DNA of 64,000 nt, from positions 14,946 to 78,945 of the forward strand of contig CAZOUV010000003.1 of the NCBI GenBank assembly GCA_964583105.1, in the 5' to 3' direction. The DNA is from an uncultured Gammaproteobacteria bacterium (lineage in GTDB: Bacteria; Patescibacteriota; Microgenomatia; UBA8517). Positions 6,170 through 38,539 of the stretch are shown in pieces (the stretch's first letter is position 1; each line of letters starts with the position of its first letter). The position numbers and the translations under genes are program-made. The notes under the pieces were generated by a model. It was given only the letters and a program-made list of their open reading frames with translations, was not told the DNA's origin and ran no database searches.

Positions 6170-7630
6170 ATGTTGGTTTTAGTAGCGGTTTTTCCGCTTT
6201 TGCTGTTTGTAGTTCTTCTTTTGCTGGGGAAGCTTAAGGTTCTTTGGGCTTCAGTAATTTCTTTATTGGCCACGTCTGTCCTTACGTTTTATGTCTGGAA
6301 AATAGATTTAAAACTGTTTTTATCCAGTATATTAAAAGGTGGTTTTATATCTTTTGATATACTTTTAATCGTTTTCGGAGCGATCCTTTTTATAGGACTT
6401 CTAAAAAAGATAAATATTATAGAAAATCTTTGCTACTATCTCGGTACTTTTTCCCAGGATTTAAGAATTCAGGTAATACTTCTTGCATGGTTTTTGGAAA
6501 ATTTTCTGGAAGGAACGGCAGGGTTTGGAACTCCTTCTGCGGTTGTTGCCCCTATCCTTATAGGACTTGGAATAACTCCGATTTGGGCAGTTGCCATAGC
6601 GATGTTGGGGAACAGTGCAAGTGTTGTCTTTGGCGCGGCAGGAACTCCCATAAGGGTGGGATTTTCAGGACTTGATATTTCCCGGGTTCCATATTATTCG
6701 GGACTTTTTAATTTAGTCGGAATTTTAGTTCCCGTCTTTATGCTTTTTGCGGTGACTTATAAAAAGGAAAACTGGAAAAAGTATTTTTGGGAAGGACTTC
6801 CTTTTTCTGTTTTTTCGGGAGTTGCCTACAGTATTCCCGCTTTTTTGATAACTTATTTGGGACAGGAATTTCCCGCTATTTTAGGGTCTATAGTAGGAAT
6901 ATTATTTGTCATTCTTGCCATTAAATTTAAGTTTCTTCTTCCAAAAAATATAATGAAATCTAATAAACAAGAATTTACGGGTGAAAAAATTCCCTTGAAA
7001 AAAGTTATCTTTCCATATCTTCTTCTGGTTTCACTTTTGATTTTAGGAAAATTCCTTTTGGAAAAAGTAGGCTACAGTTTCTATTTCGGCCTTAACCATA
7101 GATTTAGTCTTTTTAATCCGGGAATTATATTTTTACTTACTTCTTTTATAGTTTTTCTTATTTGGAGGAAACACCTAAATGCCACAAAAATATTGATAAC
7201 AAATTCCATCAAAAAATCCATAGAACCCTTTTTGGTTGTTTTTTCCATGTCTGCCCTTGCCCAAATAATGATTAACTCTGGACAAACCGAGGTCATTGCT
7301 CAAAACCTGAAGACAAACCTGCTTCCTGTTATCTCTCCCTTTCTTGGAGCATTTGGTAGCTTCATGACAGGTTCCGCAACGGTATCTAACATAATGTTTG
7401 GTGGACTTCTTGCTAAAGCAGCAGTTGATCTGGGAATGATTCCTTCAATTATTCTTTCTTTGGGGGTTGTGGGTGCCGCCGCGGGAAATATGATTGCCCT
7501 AGCCGATATAATGCCGGCTCTGGCAGTTGTAAACTTAAAAGGCAAGGAAAGGAGTATTTTAAAAAGGGTGTTCGTTCCCTGTCTTATATATATTGCCTTG
7601 GTAGGTATTATTGGCCTTGCAGTAGTATAA
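6170..7630 (+). CDS. L-lactate permease (LctP) family transporter
   Basis: 486 aa polytopic membrane protein carrying EGTAGFGTPSAVVAPILIGLG, which resembles the LctP family signature. Confidence 0.55.
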   Translation: MLVLVAVFPLLLFVVLLLLGKLKVLWASVISLLATSVLTFYVWKIDLKLFLSSILKGGFISFDILLIVFGAILFIGLLKKINIIENLCYYLGTFSQDLRIQVILLAWFLENFLEGTAGFGTPSAVVAPILIGLGITPIWAVAIAMLGNSASVVFGAAGTPIRVGFSGLDISRVPYYSGLFNLVGILVPVFMLFAVTYKKENWKKYFWEGLPFSVFSGVAYSIPAFLITYLGQEFPAILGSIVGILFVILAIKFKFLLPKNIMKSNKQEFTGEKIPLKKVIFPYLLLVSLLILGKFLLEKVGYSFYFGLNHRFSLFNPGIIFLLTSFIVFLIWRKHLNATKILITNSIKKSIEPFLVVFSMSALAQIMINSGQTEVIAQNLKTNLLPVISPFLGAFGSFMTGSATVSNIMFGGLLAKAAVDLGMIPSIILSLGVVGAAAGNMIALADIMPALAVVNLKGKERSILKRVFVPCLIYIALVGIIGLAVV

Positions 7631-7641
7631 TTCCCCAAAGA

Positions 7642-8604
7642 ATGAAAACCTGGCAAAAGATAAAAAGAAATCCTGAATTAATATCCAAATATTTAATCAG
7701 GGAAGAAGTAATTGATAAAATTCGAAGTTTTTTTAAAGCCCACGGTTTTCGTGAGGTTTTTACTCCGATTTTAGTACCAGTTCCCTCAATAGAGCCAAAT
7801 TTGGAAGTTTTTGAAACGCAGTTAAAAACTTTAAGAGGATTAAAAAGAAAAGGATTTTTAATTATGAGTCCTGAGTATTCTATAAAGAAACTTTTAGCTG
7901 CAGGGATAGGGAACTGTTTTGAAATAACCAAATGTTTCAGAAATGAAGAAGAAATTTCCCCACTTCATAATCCGGAATTTACAATGCTTGAGTGGTACAG
8001 AGTAGGGGTGGACTACAAAAAAATAATGCAGGATTTTGAAAATTTGTTTTTACAAATAATCGGCAAAGACAAACTTACATATCAGGATGTAACTTATGAC
8101 TTGAGTTTGCCTTGGCCAAGAATAAGTTTTAAGGAAGCTTTCAAAAAATATGCAAATAAAGATATTGAAAAGATAAAAGACGAGGATTTCTATAAAATAT
8201 TTTTTAATGAGGTGGAACCGAATATTAAAAAACTTAAAAAACCTGTAATTTTATACGATTATCCGGTTTCTCAGGCATCTCTTGCAAGAAAATGTAAAGA
8301 GAATCCTAAATTTGCCGAAAGGTTTGAAATATTTTTGGCCGGTATTGAACTCGGAAACTGTTTTTCGGAACTAACGGATTACAAAGAACAAAGAAAAAGG
8401 TTCGAAAAAGATCTTCTGAAAAGAAGAAAAAAGGGAAAAACTAATTACCCAATTGATAATGATTTGATCGAAGCGTTGAGAGAGGGCATACCTGAAGTTT
8501 CCGGTATTGCAGTAGGAGTTGACAGGCTTATCATGCTTGCAACAGATGTACCTAGTATTTCCGAGACATTATTTTTCTCCGACAAGGAGTTGTTTGATTT
8601 GTAG
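7642..8604 (+). CDS. epmA: EF-P lysine aminoacylase EpmA (GenX/PoxA; truncated class II LysRS paralog)
   Basis: 320 aa with class II aaRS core motifs (FREVFTPIL, FEITKCFRNEE, final GIAVGVDRL) and the size of EpmA. It lies immediately upstream of efp. Confidence 0.7.
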   Translation: MKTWQKIKRNPELISKYLIREEVIDKIRSFFKAHGFREVFTPILVPVPSIEPNLEVFETQLKTLRGLKRKGFLIMSPEYSIKKLLAAGIGNCFEITKCFRNEEEISPLHNPEFTMLEWYRVGVDYKKIMQDFENLFLQIIGKDKLTYQDVTYDLSLPWPRISFKEAFKKYANKDIEKIKDEDFYKIFFNEVEPNIKKLKKPVILYDYPVSQASLARKCKENPKFAERFEIFLAGIELGNCFSELTDYKEQRKRFEKDLLKRRKKGKTNYPIDNDLIEALREGIPEVSGIAVGVDRLIMLATDVPSISETLFFSDKELFDL

Positions 8605-8664
8605 GTCAAAATTAGGGTAAAATACACTAATCGACCTTTTTGCGGGTCGATATATTTTTTAAAT

Positions 8665-9228
8665 ATGGAAACGGTTAATGCGGGCAATATCACCAAAGGA
8701 AGCTATATTATTTTTAAGAGTGCTCCCGTAATGGTTACTAAAGCAGAGTTTATGTCTCCGGGAAAAGGCTCTCCCGTAATGAGAGTTAAATTTAAAAATG
8801 TACAAACAGGTTCTGCGGGGGAATATACCTATAAAACCAGCGAACAGGTTGAAGTTGCTGATATCTCCAAAAAAGAGATGCAGTTTCTTTACAGGGACGG
8901 AGGCGAACTTGTTTTTATGGATCCAAAATCTTACGACCAAGTATCAATCCCGGTTGGGCTTGTTGAAAAAGTCGGATATCTAATACCCAACCTTAAATGC
9001 TGGATTGTTTGGTACAAGGAAAAAGCAATAGGGGTAAATCTTCCTTCCCACGTAACCTTAAAAGTAGTCGAAAGTCCAAATGATGTTGCGGGAAACCGAG
9101 TAAATGCCCCCAAAAAGACGGTAAAATTAGAAACTGGAGTCGAAGCCCAAGTTCCACTTTTTATCAAAGTAGGAGAAAGTATTACACTAGACACTGAGAC
9201 AGATTCCTATCTTTCAAGAATACAGTGA
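8665..9228 (+). CDS. efp: translation elongation factor P
   Basis: 187 aa three-domain EF-P with the conserved loop SPGKGS carrying the modifiable Lys. Confidence 0.9.
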   Translation: METVNAGNITKGSYIIFKSAPVMVTKAEFMSPGKGSPVMRVKFKNVQTGSAGEYTYKTSEQVEVADISKKEMQFLYRDGGELVFMDPKSYDQVSIPVGLVEKVGYLIPNLKCWIVWYKEKAIGVNLPSHVTLKVVESPNDVAGNRVNAPKKTVKLETGVEAQVPLFIKVGESITLDTETDSYLSRIQ

Positions 9229-9232
9229 TTCC

Positions 9233-9616
9233 TTATACGTGATCTTCTTCGTCAGCCATTGCTTCAGCCTTTGTTGCATGAATTTTCCCGTCCGGATGAT
9301 TTGGAGGGGAGTAGATCGTGTAAAGTTTTAACTCCTCGGTTTCGGATGTATTAATCAAATTATGTTCTGTTCCTGCTGGAACAACAATTGAAATCCCATC
9401 TGAAAGAGCATTTTCTTCACCGTTCATAATAATTTTTCCCTGACCTTTCTCAACTCTAAAAAATTGATCGACTGTGTTATGTACTTCAACTCCGATATCT
9501 TCCTTCGGAAGAAGATTCATTACAACCAGCTGACAATATTTTCCTGTAAAAATAACCTGTCTGAAATTTTTGTTAGCTAAAGTAAGTTCTTCGATATTTC
9601 CTACGTATCCCGTCAT
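9233..9616 (-). CDS. cupin domain protein
   Basis: 127 aa with two cupin motifs (G..E.H..D..E...I..G ; VPAGTEHNLIN). Confidence 0.5.
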   Translation of the reverse strand: MTGYVGNIEELTLANKNFRQVIFTGKYCQLVVMNLLPKEDIGVEVHNTVDQFFRVEKGQGKIIMNGEENALSDGISIVVPAGTEHNLINTSETEELKLYTIYSPPNHPDGKIHATKAEAMADEEDHV

Positions 9617-9620
9617 ATAA

Positions 9621-10154
9621 TCACCCCCTTACTAATTTATATTTATAGTACCATGAATTAGTCAGCCTGTAGCTTGCAAAGATGATACCCGTATAGAAAA
9701 GATCTCCCAACAAAGTATTTCGGAAAAATGGAAGAGCCATAATAAAACACTCAATAAGCCCGTTAATGTTTTTAAGATAAAGAGGAGTAAAAGCCCAAAC
9801 CGCGAAATTGGTAACAACAAAAAAAACTACCGATGAGGCAAATGAAGCAAGAATAATGTTTTTGTAGTTTAGATTCTTTTTGACAAATCTTCCTATAAAA
9901 ACCGTAATTAAAAAGCTTGCATATACAAAAATTCTCATTTGAATACTGTCAAAACCTATAAACATATCCGAAAGAAACATGATTAAAAGGGGAACGATAA
10001 ATGCCTGCCTTTTACTTAAGTAGGTTCCTCCAAATAAAGCCATGGCTCCCACGGGAGTAAAGTTGGGAACGTGGGGAATAAGTCTTGCCAAAGCTCCCAA
10101 TAATATAAAACTTACAGGGTTTATTAGTTTTTTTAAAATGTGTTTATTTGCCAT
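9621..10154 (-). CDS. small polytopic membrane protein (ECF-transporter S-component-like)
   Basis: 177 aa with about 5-6 TM helices, the size and topology of ECF substrate-capture components. It overlaps the upstream DUF4430 gene by 22 nt. Confidence 0.3.
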   Translation of the reverse strand: MANKHILKKLINPVSFILLGALARLIPHVPNFTPVGAMALFGGTYLSKRQAFIVPLLIMFLSDMFIGFDSIQMRIFVYASFLITVFIGRFVKKNLNYKNIILASFASSVVFFVVTNFAVWAFTPLYLKNINGLIECFIMALPFFRNTLLGDLFYTGIIFASYRLTNSWYYKYKLVRG

Positions 10155-10540
10155 ACAATTTTATCTCCCGCCTTAATAATATAGCTTCCGGCACCTACTT
10201 CAGATGGTTTGTCATTGATAATAAGTTCCCAAAATTCGTTCTTTTTGGTATCCGCCATCCTTCCTTCAATAGATACGACATATGCATTTATTCCAGATCC
10301 TTCTGTTTTAATTTCTTTTACGGAAGTTTCGGTTGCATCAAGTGCGGTTTTTCCGATAAAGCCAGATATGTCAACAAGGGAGTATTCCGAAGAAGTTTTA
10401 ATAGTAAGAGTAGTTTCCTGATTTTGAACTTGATTCGTATTATCTTGATTTTTTTCAGATTTTGAAAAAGTTAAGAAGCTAATTACTGCAAATAGCAGAA
10501 TAACCGACAGGATTTTTAGAAGTTTTGTATGGTTTTTCAT
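10133..10540 (-). CDS. secreted DUF4430-like (transcobalamin beta-domain-like) protein
   Basis: Signal peptide. The C-terminal pattern EFWELIINDKPSEVGAGSYIIKAGDKIVWQ matches the DUF4430 beta-grasp motif (WxhxxNg...hGa..y.lkdGD.I.w). Confidence 0.45.
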   Translation of the reverse strand: MKNHTKLLKILSVILLFAVISFLTFSKSEKNQDNTNQVQNQETTLTIKTSSEYSLVDISGFIGKTALDATETSVKEIKTEGSGINAYVVSIEGRMADTKKNEFWELIINDKPSEVGAGSYIIKAGDKIVWQINTF

Positions 10541-10707
10541 ATATTCTGTGCTCGCAGTTTATCCTTTGGGTTCTGGGTATACAGTAGCGGCACTCCTGCA
10601 GATTTACGCTGCAATTCACCAAGTTACCCAATTTATCTTAGTTAAGTATCTAAAGTCAAGCGGTAATATTGCGGTAAATATGCGGTAATAGCTGAAGCTA
10701 AAAATGC
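10541..10707 (-). promoter_or_regulatory. leader region with cobalamin-riboswitch-like elements and three direct repeats
   Basis: The minus-strand leader contains GGUGAAUUGC ... AAAUCU ... GCCGCUACUGUAUA, resembling the GGUG..AAAUCC...CCCGC.ACUGUAA core of AdoCbl riboswitches. There are also three GCGGTAA(A)TA repeats at 11-bp spacing (10661-10692). Confidence 0.2.
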
Positions 10708-11985
10708 TTAATCAAATAATGTTATTGTTTCGGGAGTAGGTTTAAAAACAATAGTTTCAAGAATAGATTTAACTTCTTGAAGCGTAGTCTCCGATTCAGT
10801 CTTAATATTTATCCAACCAATTTCTGTAGTATCGATATATCTCTCTTTGGTCTTTCCACAGACAATATATGATTTATCACTAGAATCTTTTGGTTCGCTT
10901 ATTCTCCAAAAATTGGGTTTACTAAGTTGAATATAAGATGAAAAAAATTTGCCAGCACCCATAAAAGTTGTGTAATCAACATCGTCATAATAAATGCAAT
11001 TTCCACCACCACCGACACCTTGAGTAATTGTAATTGTTTCACCATTCTGGTTTGTGAGAATGAGGGTTAAAGATTTTGTGGGTTCGGCTGAAACTAATTG
11101 TTCTTTAGCAGTCCATGAGGAAGGGTAATTTATTTGAAAAGGAGAAATATAATTTCCAGTTTCTGGAGAATTATATATTTTCCAATTTGAAACATCTTCT
11201 GTTTGGATAGAGAACTTAAATGTGGAGAGTATTTGGTCAAAAATATCAAAAATTGTATTTGCTCTGCTCGTTGCAGTTGAAATATGTATATTGTAGGCAT
11301 TTTCCTGATAAACAAAATAAATATATTTCCATGTTTGTGAATATAGATTCGTTGTTTTTTGATAAGTAAATTCTATTGCTGGTTGACCCAAAAATGTAGT
11401 TGCCACCTTTTCAATTTTAGTATCTGCCAATAACCAACTGAAAGTTTTGGAAAAACATTCGTCTAATGTTGTACATTTTTTATTGATGCTTGTAGGATCG
11501 AGCTCGTTTATTAGTATGTTGAAACCAGTTCCCGGATCTTCTCCCGGGAGATTTGGGTCAAAAAAATCGGCAACATTTTGTTCAGATATTTGTTCATCTG
11601 TTAAGTTACCGGGACCTCTATTAGGCTCCCAACCGTTGGGATATTTTATTGAATATCCATATTTAGTATTTGAATAGGTTTTCCAGTTTGCGGTTGGATC
11701 TGTGGTGGCAATAGGGATTGGGGTGGATTCTATGATTGGTCTTCTAGATGTCAAATAATTTTTGTATACCCAATAACCCACTAAGCCAAGTCCTAAAATC
11801 GCAAATAAAATAATTAAGACAGGTAATAGTTTACTTTTTGTTTTGGGTACTTCCGGTACAATAGGTTGTTCTGGCGGTGGGGGAGGAATCGGTTGTTGTT
11901 CGGTTTTCATCCCGGTTTGAAGAATATCGGGAGTTTGCGGTACCGACGTGCTTTGTTGTAAAGGTTGATTCTCGTTCATACTCAA
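10708..11985 (-). CDS. secreted/membrane-anchored Pro-rich protein with C-terminal FDQILSTF domain
   Basis: 425 aa: Pro-rich N-terminus, one TM helix (LLPVLIILFAILGLGLVGYWV), a large extracytoplasmic domain, and a C-terminal motif shared with ORF 19330-19983. Confidence 0.4.
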   Translation of the reverse strand: MSMNENQPLQQSTSVPQTPDILQTGMKTEQQPIPPPPPEQPIVPEVPKTKSKLLPVLIILFAILGLGLVGYWVYKNYLTSRRPIIESTPIPIATTDPTANWKTYSNTKYGYSIKYPNGWEPNRGPGNLTDEQISEQNVADFFDPNLPGEDPGTGFNILINELDPTSINKKCTTLDECFSKTFSWLLADTKIEKVATTFLGQPAIEFTYQKTTNLYSQTWKYIYFVYQENAYNIHISTATSRANTIFDIFDQILSTFKFSIQTEDVSNWKIYNSPETGNYISPFQINYPSSWTAKEQLVSAEPTKSLTLILTNQNGETITITQGVGGGGNCIYYDDVDYTTFMGAGKFFSSYIQLSKPNFWRISEPKDSSDKSYIVCGKTKERYIDTTEIGWINIKTESETTLQEVKSILETIVFKPTPETITLFD

Positions 11986-32282: not shown

Positions 32283-32741
32283 ATGAAGTGTCCTTTTTGT
32301 AAATTTAACGATTCTGAAGTTTTGGAGTCAAGGGTTACCGAAAACGGAAGTTGCATAAGAAGAAGGAGGTCTTGCCCTAAATGCAAAAAAAGATTTACAA
32401 CACAGGAAAAGATTAAAGATTCGGTTATTTGGGTGATTAAAAAAGACGGAAGACGGGAACTTTTTGATAGAGAAAAAGTAAAAAGGGGGATTGTAAGGGC
32501 TTTGGAAAAAAGACCGGTGGGAATGAACGTTGTTGACGAGATAGTTAACGAAATCGAAAGAGAGATGCTTGGAGAGGAAAAGGAAGAAATTCCCACAACG
32601 GTAATTGGAAAAGCGGTTTTAAGAAAACTTAAGAAAATCGACAAAGTAGCGTGGTTGAGGTTTGCAAGTGTCTATTTTGAATTTGAAAATTTGGATGATT
32701 TCGAAAAGATAATTGATAAAAAACAAATGGGCAAAAAATAA
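32283..32741 (+). CDS. nrdR: transcriptional repressor NrdR
   Basis: MKCPFCKF...CPKCKKRF zinc ribbon plus ATP-cone; 152 aa. Confidence 0.9.
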   Translation: MKCPFCKFNDSEVLESRVTENGSCIRRRRSCPKCKKRFTTQEKIKDSVIWVIKKDGRRELFDREKVKRGIVRALEKRPVGMNVVDEIVNEIEREMLGEEKEEIPTTVIGKAVLRKLKKIDKVAWLRFASVYFEFENLDDFEKIIDKKQMGKK

Positions 32742-32742
32742 A

Positions 32743-35307
32743 ATGTTGCAAAAAATTACAAAAGAAAAAAATAAACAAAGAAAAACCGCTATTAAAAAAA
32801 GTTATACAAACGGTACAAACGGTCACTCAAAAAATTTTCATCTTTCTCTAGATTCATTGGTTTTTTTACCCTACGAAAAGATAAAAGAAGAGATACATAA
32901 AAAAATAGGTTACATGCCAGATAAACCCAAAGATTTGAAAAAGGGTTTTTGGACAGAACAAGCTGTTAAGGTATTAAGTGAGAGATATTTAATGAAAGAC
33001 GCTAAAGGGAAGATTATTGAAACACCTGAAGATTTGTGCTGGAGAGTTGCCTGGGAAGTTGCTTCCGCTGAAGCAAGATGGGGAAAAACCAAAAAGGAAG
33101 TATTAGATATTGCTAAAACATTTTACAACCTTTTGATTGGCCATGAATTTCTTCCTAACTCTCCGACACTAATGAATGCTGGAACGGAAAACCATTTACA
33201 ATATTCTGCCTGTTTCGTGATTCCAGTTGAAGATTCAATTGAAGGGATTTTTGATGCACTGAAATATCAAGCACTGATTCATAAAACCGGAGGAGGAACA
33301 GGATTTTCTTTTTCAAGACTTAGGCCCAACGGGTCGATGGTTAAAACTTCTTCAGGTACAGCATCGGGCCCAGTTTCTTTTATGAGGATTTTTGATGCTG
33401 CCACCAATGAAGTGAAACAGGGCGGTAAAAGAAGGGGTGCAAACATGGGCATTTTAAGAGTTGACCATCCTGATATTTTGGAATTTATTCATTGCAAGGA
33501 AAATGGAGGAATAACGAATTTTAATATTTCAGTGGGGATTACAGATAAATTTATGCATGCTTACAAAGAAGGAAAGGAATATGAACTTGTTAATCCCAAA
33601 ACAAAAGAAGTTTCAGGAAAACTTTCGGCAAAAAAGGTTTTCGATGAAATTGTCAAACTTGCTTGGAAAACGGGAGACCCGGGAATAATATTTATAGACA
33701 GAATTAATACGGGTTCTGCAAATCCAATTCCTTCATTGGGACCAATAGAATCAACAAACCCTTGCGGAGAACAGCCTTTATACCCCTTTGATTCATGTAA
33801 TTTGGGAAGTATTTTTTTAAATTATTTTGTTAAAAAAGAAGAAAATAAAAGCACTATTGATTGGGATAAGTTGGAGCAGGTAACCAAAAAAGCTGTAAGG
33901 TTTTTAGATAATGTAATCGAAGTCAATCCATATACTCTTCCCCAAATAAGACAAACAACGCTTGCCATAAGAAGAATTGGGCTTGGGGTAGCCGGTTGGG
34001 CGGACCTTTTGATTGAATTAGGAATTTCCTATGGTAGTCAGGAGGCCTTAGATCTTGCTAAAAAGTTAATGAGTTTTGTTAACCAAAAAGCAAAAGAAGA
34101 GTCGTATCAGCTTGCTAAAGAAAGAGGACCGTTTCCTCTTTGGCAGGAAAGTATTTACAAAGATGATTTTCCCAGAAGAAATTCGACACTTACAACAATT
34201 GCTCCGACCGGGACAATATCAATAATTGCAGGTTCTTCTAGTGGGATTGAACCCCTTTTTGCAATTGCATATGAACATATAGTTAGGGATAAACACCTGG
34301 ATAGAAAACTTGCTTTTGTTAACCCGAAATTTGAAGAAGTATTAAGAGAAAAGGAAATTTGGTCTGATGAAATTAAGAATAAGCTGGCAAAAACAGGAGT
34401 AGTTGGGCAAATAGCAGAAATTCCTGAAGAGATAAGAAAAGTTTTTTCAACTGCCCATGAAATTGAACCCGTTTGGCATATCAAAATGCAGGCCGTGTTT
34501 CAAGAAAATACCGAGAATGCGGTTTCAAAAACAATTAATCTAAGACATGATTCTAGGGAAGAAGATGTTAAAAATGCGTATCTTCTTGCCTGGGATATGG
34601 GATGTAAGGGAATAACCATATTTAGGGACGGCAGTAAGGGAGAACAAGTTTTAAACCTTGGTTTAAACGATAAAAAAGAAACAAACGGAGTTGTCAAAGA
34701 ATCTCACAATGAGCCCTTAGTAACAAGACCATATAAAGTTTCCGGTTCAACCTACAGAATTACAACTCCGGTAGGAACAGCGTTTATTACAATTAATGAA
34801 AACGAAAGTAAAGAACCGATTGAACTTTTTATAAATATTGGGAAAGCGGGAAGTGATCTTGCCGCAATGGCTGAGGCTTTAGGAAGAACAATTTCGACCG
34901 CCTTTAGGTTTCGAGGAGAACTTTCCCCCAAAGAAAGGGCTAAAGAAATTGCCTTTCAACTTTCGGGAATTGGAGGAAGAAGGTCGATAGGTTTCGGACC
35001 CGCAAAAATTCTTTCTCTTCCGGATGCGGTGAGCATTGCTCTTTCCAGTCATTACAATTTTAAAATCAACGGAAATTTAATGGTCGGAAGTATTTTAGGA
35101 GGAAACGGGGTCTTAGCAAGCGGAACCGTACCTACTGTGAGGGCTACCCAGCATCAGGAAACTGATGCAACCTTAGACCCCGCAGCAGTTGCGATTTCGC
35201 TTAGTGAGACTCATGTAGGAGATATCTGCCCGTCCTGCGGGGCATCGGCTCTTGTCAACGAAGAAGGCTGTTCCAAGTGTCATGCTTGCGGACATTCGGA
35301 GTGTTAG
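32743..35307 (+). CDS. nrdJ: class II (adenosylcobalamin-dependent) ribonucleotide reductase NrdJ
   Basis: NPCGEQPL active-site motif, class II layout, C-terminal Cys-rich zinc ribbon (CPSCGAS...CSKCHACGHSEC). The start was set at MLQKIT, 1 nt after the nrdR stop. Confidence 0.9.
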   Translation: MLQKITKEKNKQRKTAIKKSYTNGTNGHSKNFHLSLDSLVFLPYEKIKEEIHKKIGYMPDKPKDLKKGFWTEQAVKVLSERYLMKDAKGKIIETPEDLCWRVAWEVASAEARWGKTKKEVLDIAKTFYNLLIGHEFLPNSPTLMNAGTENHLQYSACFVIPVEDSIEGIFDALKYQALIHKTGGGTGFSFSRLRPNGSMVKTSSGTASGPVSFMRIFDAATNEVKQGGKRRGANMGILRVDHPDILEFIHCKENGGITNFNISVGITDKFMHAYKEGKEYELVNPKTKEVSGKLSAKKVFDEIVKLAWKTGDPGIIFIDRINTGSANPIPSLGPIESTNPCGEQPLYPFDSCNLGSIFLNYFVKKEENKSTIDWDKLEQVTKKAVRFLDNVIEVNPYTLPQIRQTTLAIRRIGLGVAGWADLLIELGISYGSQEALDLAKKLMSFVNQKAKEESYQLAKERGPFPLWQESIYKDDFPRRNSTLTTIAPTGTISIIAGSSSGIEPLFAIAYEHIVRDKHLDRKLAFVNPKFEEVLREKEIWSDEIKNKLAKTGVVGQIAEIPEEIRKVFSTAHEIEPVWHIKMQAVFQENTENAVSKTINLRHDSREEDVKNAYLLAWDMGCKGITIFRDGSKGEQVLNLGLNDKKETNGVVKESHNEPLVTRPYKVSGSTYRITTPVGTAFITINENESKEPIELFINIGKAGSDLAAMAEALGRTISTAFRFRGELSPKERAKEIAFQLSGIGGRRSIGFGPAKILSLPDAVSIALSSHYNFKINGNLMVGSILGGNGVLASGTVPTVRATQHQETDATLDPAAVAISLSETHVGDICPSCGASALVNEEGCSKCHACGHSEC

Positions 35308-35319
35308 TAAAAACTTCTA

Positions 35320-35865
35320 ATGACAATCTATACCAAAAAAGGGGATAGGGGAAAAACAGGATTATATTCAACACATAAATCCAAAAATATTAGAGTTGGT
35401 AAGGATTCTTTGATAATCGAAGCAATTGGTTGTATTGATGAGACAAACACTTTTTTGGGTCTTGCAACCTCTTTTATTAAATTCGGTAAACTCAAAAACA
35501 AAGTAATTGAAATACAAAAACATCTTTTTGAAGTGGGGGCAATTCTGGCCGGAGCAAACTTAAATTTAGATGACAGAATTGTTTTACAGATGGAAAAAGA
35601 AATTGATGAAATGGATAAAACGCTCCCAACATTAAAACATTTTATTCTTCCAGGAGGGGGATATGCGGGGAGTCTTTTATTTATGGCCAGAACTTTTGTG
35701 AGACGTGCTGAAAGACGAGTGGTGACAATTTCTAAAAAAAGTAAATTAAATCCCGATTTACTAATTTATCTCAATAGGCTTTCAGATTATGTATTTACCT
35801 TAGCAAGATACTCAAATTTTAAAGAGGGCGGGAAAGAAGAGATTTGGAAGAGCTTTGGGAAATGA
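35320..35865 (+). CDS. PduO-type ATP:cob(I)alamin adenosyltransferase
   Basis: IYTKKGDRGKTGL N-terminal signature of the PduO family; 181 aa. Confidence 0.8.
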   Translation: MTIYTKKGDRGKTGLYSTHKSKNIRVGKDSLIIEAIGCIDETNTFLGLATSFIKFGKLKNKVIEIQKHLFEVGAILAGANLNLDDRIVLQMEKEIDEMDKTLPTLKHFILPGGGYAGSLLFMARTFVRRAERRVVTISKKSKLNPDLLIYLNRLSDYVFTLARYSNFKEGGKEEIWKSFGK

Positions 35866-35880
35866 TACAATTGATGTGCC

Positions 35881-36201
35881 ATGCCCATATTTCCCGAAAG
35901 AGAAAAAAATGTAATTGAAACACCCGAAGAGGCCTCGGCCTTAACTATTGAAAGAAAAGAAGTTGTAACTCCAATTCCAGTTTCTTTTTCCAAACAAGTA
36001 AAAACCGATTCCGGAAAGCCCCTCATGGAAATTCCGGGTCAAGGGGGGAAGATTAAAATAACAATACCCAAGTCTCAGGTTGAATTAGAAACTCTTTCAA
36101 AAGGATCTGTATCAGATTCCATTACCTGGTTTGCTGCGTTTTGGATTAGAATGATTAAGAAAGCTCTGCATTTCGGATGGGAGCTTTTGGGTGGTCACTA
36201 G
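35881..36201 (+). CDS. hypothetical small protein
   Basis: 106 aa; it overlaps the start of the downstream ATPase by 11 nt, suggesting translational coupling. Confidence 0.3.
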   Translation: MPIFPEREKNVIETPEEASALTIERKEVVTPIPVSFSKQVKTDSGKPLMEIPGQGGKIKITIPKSQVELETLSKGSVSDSITWFAAFWIRMIKKALHFGWELLGGH

Positions 36202-38539
36202 TATGGTTACAGAAACGTTATTTGATTACAATTTAATTATTAATATTCTCCTTTTTTCGGGAGTAGCAGCTACTTTATTTGTCGCATTGTGGCAAATTGC
36301 TTTAACCTTTTTTAAACACAGGGGTAGAGAAGAAAGAAGTGTTGACTCGGTTCTTCTTCAGATTGCACTGCCAAGAAATAACGAAACCAAGATTGATGCC
36401 ATGGAACAAGTATTTTCTTCTCTATATTCGATTAAAAAAGGTGGATGGAAACAAAGATTTTCGGTTCAACCTACCGTCTCTTTTGAAATTGTGGCCATGC
36501 AGGAAGACATAAGATTCTTTGTCTGGTGCCCCAAAAAACTTCAAGATCTTTTGGAAAAGCAGATTAACGGAGGTTTTCCGGAAGCGGAAATTAAGGAAGT
36601 TCCCGAAGTTGATATTTTTAAAGAAAAAGGTAAGGTTGCCTATAAATCCCTTCAGCTTTCCAAGGCAAATTTCTATCCCCTTAAAACCTTTAAAGATTTG
36701 GCAACTGATCCACTAAGTTCGGTTACATCTACCTTGGCTAAAATGGGACCCGATGAAGCCGCATCCGTTCAGATACTTGTATCTCCTGCTGAAAGTGCTT
36801 GGCAAAAATCGGGAAGTAAATTTATTTCTGATACCAAAAAACAGGAATCCGATCCTGAGAAAGCAAAATTTTCAACCTCAGCAAAAACTTTGGAAGCGGT
36901 TGAAAGTAAAATTGCAAAACCCGGATTTGAGACATCAATAAGAATTGTTGTTGTCTCCGAAACATCGGAAATTGCAAAATCACATCTTGATAATATTGCA
37001 TCCTCCTTTAGCCAATTTGCATCAGATACAAATCTTTTAAAGAAGAGAAAAATTGTCAATAAAGGTGCTTTCATGGAAGATTTTCTTTACAGGTATCAGC
37101 CGATGTTTAATATGCCCGGCAATAGAATGTCTGTTTTAAATTCTGAGGAACTTGCAACAATATATCATTTTCCCAATAAACAAGTCACAACCCCGCATAT
37201 TTTTTGGCTTAACGCAAAAACAGCCCCGGCCCCTTCTCAAATACCCATGGAGGGAATGTTTTTAGGCAATAGTATTTATAGGGGAATTAAAAGACCAGTC
37301 TTTATTTCCAACGAGGACAGGATGAGACACGTTTATATTATTGGTAAAACCGGAACCGGAAAATCCGAACTACAAAAAGAAATGATAATTCAGGATATTA
37401 AAGATGGTAACGGCCTTTGTTTTATAGATCCTCACGGAGATGCTCTTCAGGAGATATTAAAACAGGTGCCTCCTGAAAGAGCAGAGGATGTAATTTACTT
37501 TAATCCTGCAGATACCGAGCGTCCCATGGGACTTAACCTTCTAGAGGCAAAAACAGAAGATGAAAAACACTTCGCCGCAACATCAATTATCAATATGATG
37601 TATAAACTTTTCGATCCTTATAAAACAGGTATTGTGGGTCCCCGTTTTGAACACGGAGTCAGAAACGCAATGCTCACGGCAATGAGTGAAGAAGGTAACA
37701 CCTTTGTTGAAGTAATGCGCATAATGACCGACTCGCGCTATGTCCAAGAGCTTCTTCCCAAGGTTCAGGACCCCATTGTTAGAAGATACTGGACCGATCA
37801 GATTGCCCAAACCGCGGACTTTCATAAATCCGAAGTTTTAGATTATACGGTTTCCAAATTCGGAAGGTTTGTTACAAATAGACTCATAAGAAACATTATC
37901 GGTCAATCAAAATCGGCATTTGATTTCAGGCAAATTATGGATCAGGGTAAAATTCTCCTTATCAGTCTTGCCAAGGGAGAGCTGGGAGAGGAAAACTCAA
38001 ACTTTTTGGGACTTATTTTAATTCCCAGGATTTTGATGGCGGCCATGAGTAGGGCCGATATGCCTAAGGAGCAAAGACGAGACTTTTTCCTTTACGTAGA
38101 TGAGTTTCAGAATTTTGCCACCCCCGATTTTGCAACCATTCTTTCTGAGGCAAGAAAATACAGCTTGGGTCTTTGTGTAGCAAATCAGTTTATAGGTCAG
38201 GTGGAAGAGGAAGTTAAAAATGCGGTATTTGGTAATGTCGGAACAATAGTTGCATTCAGAGTGGGAGTGACGGATGCAAACTATTTACAGCATGAATTTA
38301 CTCCGACGTTTGCGGAAGATGATTTATTAAACATTGAAAGATATCATGCTTATATAAAAACCACGGTTCATAATGAACCAGTTCCTCCTTTTTCCATGGA
38401 TTTGACCAAAGACATGGCTCAACAAAAAGCTTCCGAAAATGAAAGAGTTGCAGAAATAATAAAAGAAATGAGTAGGATAAAGTACGGTAGGGATGGGAGA
38501 ATAGTTGAGGCGGAGATTGCAAGACGTTCTAACCTATGA
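36191..38539 (+). CDS. membrane-anchored FtsK/HerA-superfamily ATPase, type IV coupling protein-like (VirD4/TraD/TraG-like)
   Basis: N-terminal TM helix. Walker A is IIGKTGTGKS, followed by FIDPHGD. Walker B is FFLYVDEFQNF. The C-terminal ANQ region is present. The unique N-terminal domain of about 330 aa is unassigned. Confidence 0.55.
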   Translation: MVTSMVTETLFDYNLIINILLFSGVAATLFVALWQIALTFFKHRGREERSVDSVLLQIALPRNNETKIDAMEQVFSSLYSIKKGGWKQRFSVQPTVSFEIVAMQEDIRFFVWCPKKLQDLLEKQINGGFPEAEIKEVPEVDIFKEKGKVAYKSLQLSKANFYPLKTFKDLATDPLSSVTSTLAKMGPDEAASVQILVSPAESAWQKSGSKFISDTKKQESDPEKAKFSTSAKTLEAVESKIAKPGFETSIRIVVVSETSEIAKSHLDNIASSFSQFASDTNLLKKRKIVNKGAFMEDFLYRYQPMFNMPGNRMSVLNSEELATIYHFPNKQVTTPHIFWLNAKTAPAPSQIPMEGMFLGNSIYRGIKRPVFISNEDRMRHVYIIGKTGTGKSELQKEMIIQDIKDGNGLCFIDPHGDALQEILKQVPPERAEDVIYFNPADTERPMGLNLLEAKTEDEKHFAATSIINMMYKLFDPYKTGIVGPRFEHGVRNAMLTAMSEEGNTFVEVMRIMTDSRYVQELLPKVQDPIVRRYWTDQIAQTADFHKSEVLDYTVSKFGRFVTNRLIRNIIGQSKSAFDFRQIMDQGKILLISLAKGELGEENSNFLGLILIPRILMAAMSRADMPKEQRRDFFLYVDEFQNFATPDFATILSEARKYSLGLCVANQFIGQVEEEVKNAVFGNVGTIVAFRVGVTDANYLQHEFTPTFAEDDLLNIERYHAYIKTTVHNEPVPPFSMDLTKDMAQQKASENERVAEIIKEMSRIKYGRDGRIVEAEIARRSNL

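Follow-up and report, generated by a model that had tools for sequence, protein, structure and literature searches.

Many bacteria need B12 (cobalamin) without being able to synthesise it, and in most such cases the importer of the inner membrane is not known (PMC6072759). Two of the described importers have the S-component fold of transporters belonging to the energy-coupling factor (ECF) type, namely BtuM of Thiobacillus denitrificans (PDB 6FFV and 8OVV), a solitary B12 transporter, and CbrT of Lactobacillus delbrueckii (ECF-CbrT, PDB 6FNP), which operates together with EcfAA'T (PMC5997447). In general, S-components are docked to EcfT by an AxxxA motif in their first helix (PMC11109136). Outside the membrane, exported bacterial transcobalamin-like domains were predicted by Burroughs, Iyer and Aravind in 2007 to scavenge B12 for non-producers, and the proteins that carry them were reported mostly in operons with CbiO/CbiQ-like genes (PMC1796856). 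At the level of RNA, the closest characterised element is the env8HyCbl riboswitch, in which cobalamin stabilises an irregular kissing loop between the loops L5 and L13, with conserved unpaired purines, and thereby hides the ribosome binding site (PMC5028336; see also PMC10653944); the linker of this element measures 7 nucleotides (nt), and the irregular kissing loop was shown to make it a translational switch (PMC5028336). Here we describe an operon on a stretch of 64,000 nt (the window, with a G+C content of 36%) of contig CAZOUV010000003.1, from an uncultured, Woesebacteria-like bacterium of the candidate phyla. On the minus strand of the window a leader RNA precedes two overlapping genes, whose products belong to the families DUF4430 and DUF6580. 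Taken as a whole, the locus is likely to be a cobalamin-repressed B12 salvage operon, in which a class-II riboswitch devoid of helix P1 would control a tethered binding protein and a cysteine-free, BtuM-like transporter, feeding a PduO-type adenosyltransferase (PduO) and a class II ribonucleotide reductase (RNR). A preliminary description, made from the bare sequence, had already read the locus as a B12-uptake module; that reading is supported and proved largely right, and the features that it named are present on the minus strand where it had placed them.

The leader contains the strings GGUG...AAAUCU...GCCGCUACUGUAUA, located as described within 10541-10707, and their resemblance to adenosylcobalamin (AdoCbl) riboswitches can now be specified. 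On comparative grounds the leader is identified as a short cobalamin riboswitch of class II (AdoCbl-II, RF01689-type), because it is conserved with compensatory changes in relatives and because a model built without its lineage matches this site alone in the window. The short class-II type also accounts for two traits remarked upon before, that is, the element being shorter than usual and the lack of a classical B12 box. The closest comparison is provided by the leaders of seven contigs (L081-L087, alignment A2; five distinct sequences, counting that of the window), which share the DUF4430-DUF6580-cupin operon in identical synteny. From the first base of helix P3 to the AUG these leaders are nearly invariant, with the exception of the short linker between P3 and P13, although the proteins of the relatives are only 56-80% identical; upstream of P3 the sequence diverges, except for a TTGAC hexamer. 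Moreover, where the conserved block does differ, which is seldom, the changes compensate each other, as both sides of P4 change from UGCAG/CUGCA to CACGG/CCGUG and both sides of P6 from CUG/CAG to CCG/CGG.

The same structure emerges from a wider set of eleven leaders, aligned with MAFFT and no structure fitting (alignment A3), in which base pairs were scored against hand-drawn helices P3, P4, P5, P6 and P13. Paired cells amount to 92.5%, versus 74.6% in shuffled alignments, and 10 of 17 pairs show changes on both sides; none of 500 shuffles attains the observed pairing values, and control helices slid along the alignment reach 21-51%. Specifically, P4 is 96% paired, with four of its five pairs changed on both sides, P5 and P6 are fully paired (100% each), with two of two and one of three pairs changed, respectively, and P3 is 75% paired owing to register shifts. 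The covariation of P3-P6 looks no different in nineteen sequences taken from other lineages. For the distant riboswitches a model-guided alignment (A6) was used, which leans toward the structure of its model, and a second MAFFT alignment (A5) was set aside as its P6 and P3 were too poorly aligned. Finally, a covariance model (R2) was derived from 19 riboswitches of other lineages, none of them from the clade of the window, on a training alignment set out by a first model (R1) that had included that lineage; read with this caveat, R2 finds a single match on both strands of the 64 kb (10535-10641, minus strand; 82.7 bits, E 2.9e-18), in which all modelled pairs are standard. Once the relatives are included, the leader RNA is well beyond chance.

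Two results weigh against this identification. At gathering threshold, a search of the whole window with Rfam returns four tRNAs and no riboswitch. In E-value mode the AdoCbl-II model RF01689 does align to the leader over its entire length (model positions 1-81; 10558-10635, minus strand), but it does so with 24.6 bits (E 0.0015 in a search of 351 nt), short of the gathering score of 36.5. In addition, the fold of the leader as a single sequence is no more stable than that of shuffled sequences (z 0.06) and is uninformative. Together with the lack of an outer helix P1, a sub-threshold score and a thermodynamically ordinary fold would also be expected of a decayed remnant, or of a chance resemblance, standing in front of a constitutive operon. 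Such an origin is very improbable in the face of a block kept almost unchanged from P3 to the AUG next to freely diverging upstream sequence, of stem changes that compensate each other and of the R2 match (E 3e-18).

The low Rfam score finds an explanation in the outer helix, which is missing, its place being taken by the −10 hexamer of a promoter-like site. In particular, the closing helix that Rfam models as P1/P2 is not supported, since the alignment to RF01689 leaves two of the six outer pairs non-standard; moreover, the flanks of the leader are neither conserved nor complementary among the close relatives. The promoter-like site, TTGACT and TAAATT, has nine of twelve consensus matches and predicts a transcript start at about 10622-10625, and its −10 hexamer (10635-10630) is the very sequence that RF01689 takes as the 5′ strand of the outer helix. 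In the leaders L081-L087 the −35 TTGAC is invariant and a TAnnTT-like −10 position is kept, a pattern that points to promoter function. Given flanks that are unconserved and non-complementary, transcription probably sets in at the foot of P3, and the aptamer of this lineage is probably a minimal one without P1. Equivalent leaders of more distant candidate-phyla genomes (L001, L002, L003, L009 and L061) exceed the Rfam threshold, with 36.8-53.4 bits. The AdoCbl-II threshold of Rfam misses the minimal, P1-less form, so that standard annotation would overlook the riboswitches of this lineage, and riboswitch counts in candidate-phyla genomes are probably underestimates.

Downstream of the aptamer, the hairpin P13 follows P3 after about 10 nt and ends 5 nt before the start codon. 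Of the 11 leaders of A3, 10 have the loop sequence CGAGCA and one, L005, has CGAGUCA, whereas the stem of P13 varies on both sides (CUG/CAG, UCC/GGA, ACC/GGU and CCUU/AAGG) and covaries in three of three pairs. Loop L5 (GUGCCGC) is complementary to GCGAGCAC over 7 base pairs (bp) with one bulged A, and the minimum-energy fold of the single sequence pairs L5 with L13. By analogy with env8HyCbl, P13/L13 may be the kissing-loop partner of L5, and a cobalamin-dependent repression of translation through L5-L13 is proposed. Two observations temper this proposal: L5 and L13 hardly vary in the group, so that their contact escapes a covariation test, and no Shine-Dalgarno sequence is present in or adjoining P13 in the lineage of the window, so that the block of initiation is less clear. 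L003 and L001 do have a Shine-Dalgarno sequence, which is provided by the 3′ strand of their P13 stem.

The first gene of the operon encodes a protein of 135 amino acids (aa) for which a DUF4430 beta-grasp domain had been claimed, and this claim is borne out by the Pfam family PF14478 (65.3 bits versus a cut-off of 23.8, E 7e-18). An N-terminal hydrophobic helix (residues 5-29) with no lipobox cysteine is followed by a low-complexity linker and then by the domain; accordingly, the AlphaFold2 model (predicted local distance difference test 82.6) shows a helix at 5-29 and then a beta-grasp. The 19 best Foldseek hits of this model (E 1.4e-6 to 8e-5, probability 1.00) comprise both chains of 3u7z, a bacterial DUF4430 structure, and 17 chains that belong to transcobalamin, haptocorrin or intrinsic factor, one entry among them (5np4) being the human beta domain in isolation with cyanocobalamin bound. 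At the level of sequence, phmmer matches the protein to haptocorrin 4kki (E 7.5e-4). As judged from the model, the protein has the beta-domain fold of transcobalamin, intrinsic factor and haptocorrin, and it may well capture corrinoids. In the literature searched by its family name, DUF4430 receives incidental mentions only, and NCBIfam has no model for either this protein or its partner.

The second product, of 177 aa, had been likened to the S-component of an ECF transporter, possibly CbrT-like. The fold stood, whereas membership in a curated S-component family did not. The protein belongs to DUF6580 (PF20221; 178.8 bits versus 27, E 1e-52, residues 9-168), a family with 3192 homologues in the database that NCBI labels 'putative transport protein'; its nearest homologues are labelled Candidatus Woesebacteria, and its invariant residues include R24, P27, H28, N31, F32, P34, D63, N116, W120 and N146. 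Searches of Pfam and NCBIfam assign it to no curated ECF S-component family, it counts as neither CbrT nor BtuM, and its match to ECF-ribofla_trS (PF07155) remains below threshold (19.9 bits versus a cut-off of 26.7). Nevertheless, DUF6580 has the six-helix S-component fold, and its closest structure is BtuM, not an ECF-bound S-component. Searched against PDB, the family profile finds one chain only, 6fnp_A of the ECF-CbrT entry, which we take to be CbrT itself; the match is marginal (E 0.0029) and confined to the N-terminal half (residues 5-106), and it includes a common loop-1 motif, P-N-x-x-P-V/I. In other words, the nearest neighbours of DUF6580 by sequence and by structure are both B12 importers, and two of the three results that would have spoken against the first description did not appear, the structure of the leader being conserved and the membrane protein not falling into an unrelated family. 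Membership in BtuM itself was considered and rejected, as both the invariant cysteine and any sequence similarity are absent: the BtuM chains in PDB are not matched at E up to 10 by the single sequence or by the family profile, the similarity being structural only, and the A1 alignment contains no invariant cysteine, its sole cysteine-rich column lying in helix 5 (15 of 26 sequences).

The genomic neighbourhood of DUF6580 was examined by a scan of one genome per GTDB species, in which at least 600 stretches matched, at least 593 of them encoding DUF6580 relatives. Among the matches listed, these relatives are found in candidate-phyla bacteria, Bacteroidota, Ignavibacteriota, Verrucomicrobiota (including Akkermansia) and Planctomycetota. 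Neighbours were counted within 2.5-kb flanks at the best 80 loci, each from the representative genome of a different species; a large multi-domain open reading frame (ORF) that was recruited into the iterated hidden Markov model of DUF4430 (L024:1-1788) was excluded from the count. A riboswitch of the cobalamin clan at Rfam gathering score accompanies 29 of the 80 loci, and model R1 (E < 1e-3) adds five more. DUF4430 stands immediately upstream of DUF6580, often overlapping it, at about 26 loci, while a reductase related to the B12-dependent enzyme of the window is found at 14, PduO at 11 and an ATP-binding cassette (ABC) ATPase at a single one. Candidate-phyla genomes repeatedly show the genes arranged as RNR-[riboswitch]-DUF4430-DUF6580-PduO. 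A riboswitch followed by a TonB-dependent receptor and then by DUF6580 is the layout in Ignavibacteriota, Chlorobi and Bacteroidota, or else the riboswitch-controlled receptor is divergent; in L035 and L065 the riboswitch lies directly before DUF6580. The third condition set in the preliminary description does not speak against it either, the DUF4430-DUF6580 pair adjoining the B12-dependent RNR in many genomes. The window has this module in two parts, with the uptake genes at 9.6-10.7 kb and the RNR-PduO genes at 32.7-35.9 kb. The presence of these two enzymes, also asserted earlier, is upheld by the curated models NF006417, TIGR02504 and TIGR00636, all above their cut-offs, and it is the clustering in related genomes that suggests their coupling to uptake.

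As for the substrate, two observations tell against complete cobalamin. For transcobalamin-like proteins in Lactobacillus sakei, heme has been proposed as a ligand (bioRxiv 10.1101/864751), and in a metagenome-assembled genome (MAG) of Flavobacteriaceae (L043:2344-3010) the place directly upstream of DUF6580, where one would look for a cobalamin riboswitch, is taken by a riboswitch of the S-adenosylmethionine-binding SAM-II class (RF01726, 55.6 bits versus a gathering score of 44); a connection with B12-dependent methionine synthesis, or another substrate for this paralogue, could be the reason. Cobinamide or another corrinoid precursor, cobalt or heme could in principle be imported instead, with the riboswitch only loosely linked to B12 status. 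This seems improbable to us, as the partners of DUF6580 are corrinoid-specific in kind (a transcobalamin beta domain in the candidate phyla and, in Gram-negative genomes, a BtuB-like receptor) and the neighbouring B12-dependent reductase and adenosyltransferase need a complete corrinoid. Moreover, no corrin biosynthesis genes were seen at the loci or in the window, whose ORFs were only partly scanned against Pfam. Candidate-phyla bacteria are generally described as devoid of corrin biosynthesis genes. Most likely, DUF4430 and DUF6580 together form an unstudied route of B12 import.

How such a route would be energised is a separate matter. A dedicated (group I) ECF transporter was rejected, as no genes for an ATPase or a T-component occur nearby; in the 64-kb window, no ORF possesses both a Walker A motif and LSGG. 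Group-II S-components, on the other hand, are usually encoded at a distance from the genes of their ECF module. Under the same regulation and with the same substrate, the DUF6580 protein might then be one of them, driven by ATP like CbrT through a shared EcfA/A'/T module encoded elsewhere. The S-component fold, the match to the 6fnp chain (E 0.0029), the weak match to the Pfam family of riboflavin S-components and the operons with CbiO/CbiQ-like genes in which transcobalamin-like proteins mostly reside (PMC1796856) are all compatible with this arrangement, the main alternative, which we nonetheless consider unlikely. Specifically, AxxxA is found in helix 1 of only 8 of 188 DUF6580 sequences, in which this helix typically ends in I-G-A-x-A-R-I-I, no ABC ATPase adjoins 79 of the 80 loci, none with LSGG is encoded in the window, and the closest structure is BtuM rather than an ECF-bound S-component. 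Furthermore, in Bacteroidota, Ignavibacteriota and Verrucomicrobiota DUF6580 is common beside TonB-dependent receptors, the situation that defines the ECF-free BtuM (PMC6072759).

A transporter independent of an ECF module is therefore the arrangement we favour, and it can be extended to the whole family. DUF6580 would be an unrecognised and widespread family of corrinoid transporters that operate without an energising module, and the third importer of B12 with an S-component fold beside CbrT and BtuM; it would bind B12 without the cysteine of BtuM, perhaps through the invariant His28 of a loop-1 motif P-H-x-P-N-F, and in candidate phyla it would be fed by a tethered beta domain. This extended proposal is tentative, with chances that fall slightly short of even. 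Two points count against a transporter of this kind: in BtuM the invariant Cys80 of loop L3 ligates cobalt and is essential (PMC6072759), a residue of which DUF6580 has no equivalent, and the search for ATPases was confined to the 64-kb window and the flanks of the loci.

Some loci of the scan deserve a mention of their own. In a MAG of Akkermansia muciniphila (L049:1781-2998) a single ORF of 405 aa carries DUF6580 in its C-terminal half and PF01902 (Diphthami_syn_2, PP-loop ATPase-like) in its N-terminal half, which could be a fused energising or processing domain. A second cobalamin riboswitch occurs downstream of DUF6580/PduO in five loci (L005:3657-4891, L007:3625-5078, L030:3093-4406, L064:2944-3143 and L078:1087-1256), and in L005, L007 and L030 it precedes a protein of 360-430 aa with no Pfam match above threshold. 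At L002:3662-5056, L009:3563-4756 and L061:3609-4793, PduO is followed by related ORFs that have no riboswitch to themselves. Judging from these sequences, the proteins of 360-430 aa form an uncharacterised B12-regulated family, of which no homologue is found among the ORFs of the window.

The observations can be arranged into a model of the operon. The promoter would start the mRNA at the predicted site, at the foot of a minimal aptamer consisting of P3-P6 and no P1. When cobalamin is abundant, it would bind at the four-way junction and clamp L5 (GUGCCGC) onto L13 (CGAGCA), as it does in env8HyCbl; following the same analogy, the clamp would block the initiation of translation of the first gene and, by way of the 22-nt overlap between the two reading frames, of the second gene too. 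When cobalamin is scarce, both DUF4430 and DUF6580 would be made. The DUF4430 protein, tethered outside the membrane by its N-terminal helix, would capture the corrinoid with the transcobalamin-type beta domain of the predicted model and pass it to DUF6580, which would carry it inward across the membrane, probably, like BtuM, without the help of an ECF ATPase module dedicated to it. In the cytoplasm PduO, identified like the reductase by its curated family, would make adenosylcobalamin, trapping the corrinoid and supplying the class II RNR. The features of the operon and of the split module are collected in the table.

Table. Position of the operon, of the RNA elements of its leader and of the B12-related enzymes in the window.
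Feature	Position	Strand	Basis or remark
Intergenic leader, 167 nt	10541-10707	minus	
Promoter-like site TTGACT / 18-nt spacer / TAAATT	10630-10659	minus	Consensus scan
Aptamer core, four-way junction, putative class-II / AdoCbl-II type cobalamin riboswitch	10566-10622	minus	
Helix P3	10619-10622 with 10566-10569	minus	4 bp, register shifted versus RF01689
Helix P4	10609-10613 with 10597-10601	minus	
Helix P5	10593-10594 with 10586-10587	minus	L5 within GUGCCGC
Helix P6	10582-10584 with 10573-10575	minus	
P13/L13 putative regulatory hairpin CUG-CGAGCA-CAG	10546-10557	minus	
DUF4430 gene, 135-aa ORF	10133-10540	minus	PF14478; proposed extracytoplasmic corrinoid binder, membrane-anchored or secreted
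DUF6580 gene, 177-aa six-helix protein	9621-10154	minus	PF20221; proposed S-component-like corrinoid transporter
Cupin_2 gene, 127 aa	9233-9616	minus	PF07883
NrdR	32283-32741	plus	Pfam/NCBIfam above curated cut-offs
NrdJ, B12-dependent class II RNR	32713-35307	plus	NF006417, 1016 bits versus 961; TIGR02504, 708 versus 400
PduO-type adenosyltransferase	35320-35865	plus	TIGR00636, 166 bits versus 108

The interval 9233-10707 had been presented as a two-gene module. This holds for the pair, but a third gene in the same orientation, coding for a cupin of 127 aa, had been overlooked, and it lies outside the module. The cupin gene starts 4 nt after the DUF6580 ORF and is probably co-transcribed with the B12 pair; functionally it appears unrelated to B12. 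In fact, a cupin follows DUF6580 in the close Woesebacteria relatives only and is absent from the 80 wider loci. The family is very conserved and large (6636 hits); in Shapirobacteria the cupin sits beside the gene of elongation factor P (EF-P) without DUF4430/DUF6580, and in Anaerolineae and other genomes it is found in unrelated contexts. A role as a B12-processing enzyme of the operon was rejected, given that the cupin is missing from the 80 loci and conserved beside EF-P without B12 genes. To us it seems a resident gene that, in this lineage, has the B12 pair placed before it. In one Shapirobacteria genome (L088:1633-2469) an ORF of 278 aa with no Pfam match occupies the slot between a 59-aa ORF and the cupin/EF-P genes, and the syntenic slot holds the riboswitch-DUF4430-DUF6580 unit in the lineage of the window.

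Around the operon, the EF-P gene stands head-to-head with the operon end. Directly upstream of EF-P, within 7642-9228 on the plus strand, the window encodes a class II aminoacyl-tRNA-synthetase-like protein of 320 aa that matches PF00152 only, its size and position being compatible with an EF-P lysyl-transferase of the EpmA/PoxA type; its gene is preceded by that of a lactate permease (6170-7630). The PF00152 gene, EF-P and the permease gene lie beside the B12 operon in the close relatives L081 and L086, and the first two are kept in L083 and L084. On the opposite side (10708-11985, minus strand), a gene that starts with TTG has its end abutting the riboswitch promoter. Its product of 425 aa is proline-rich at the N-terminus, contains a single transmembrane segment and scores barely above threshold with PF18933, a PsbP-like family (31 bits versus 27), whose domains one would not usually expect in a candidate-phyla bacterium that is not photosynthetic. 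At 36191-38539 on the plus strand, some 330 nt downstream of PduO, an ATPase of 782 aa is encoded that resembles coupling proteins of the TrwB/VirD4 type (PF10412, DUF87, TraG-D_C).

In candidate-phyla bacteria the precursors of DNA rely on an RNR that requires B12, and the supply of this cofactor bears on their dependence on neighbouring organisms. If the family-wide proposal is true, DUF6580 would be the main entry route of B12 in these bacteria with reduced genomes. Through the comparative evidence, a Pfam family catalogued without a function acquires a role that is specific and can be tested, and the same protein occurs, after BtuB-like receptors, in groups that are abundant in the gut and in the environment (Bacteroidota, Ignavibacteriota and Akkermansia). 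A literature search of incomplete coverage returned no publication that names DUF6580/PF20221 or describes the DUF4430-DUF6580 pairing, and nothing on cobalamin riboswitches in Patescibacteria or on cobalamin in the candidate phyla radiation together with RNR and adenosyltransferase.

Compared with the known systems, each component of the operon combines familiar and divergent traits. Like RF01689 and env8HyCbl, the riboswitch is a short four-way-junction aptamer with no large P6 extension and a conserved GCCGCUACUG core and, as in env8HyCbl, the P13 hairpin follows after a short linker, its loop matching L5 by complementarity except for one purine left unpaired. It departs from RF01689 in its score (24.6 bits versus 36.5), in the missing outer helix, in the shifted P3 (4 bp) and in a P13 without Shine-Dalgarno sequence. 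The putative binding protein belongs to the same domain family as the bacterial transcobalamin-like SLBB proteins (DUF4430, PDB 3U7Z), which are likewise exported or tethered to the surface. The SLBB proteins described in 2007 sat with CbiO/CbiQ-like ECF genes in Firmicutes and archaea, whereas in the present operon DUF4430 is partnered by DUF6580, the two reading frames overlap and genes for an ATPase are lacking; moreover, the DUF4430 protein of the window has no alpha (toroid) domain. With CbrT, DUF6580 has in common the S-component fold and the proposed cobalamin substrate, but it possesses neither the AxxxA docking motif nor a nearby module such as the one on which CbrT depends. BtuM occurs mostly in Proteobacteria, whereas DUF6580 is found in candidate-phyla bacteria, Bacteroidota, Ignavibacteriota and Verrucomicrobiota and, unlike BtuM, is paired with a putative extracellular binding protein in candidate-phyla genomes. 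BtuM itself was first indicated by its co-localisation with btuB and by the lack of an ECF module (PMC6072759), and evidence of the same type now points to DUF6580.

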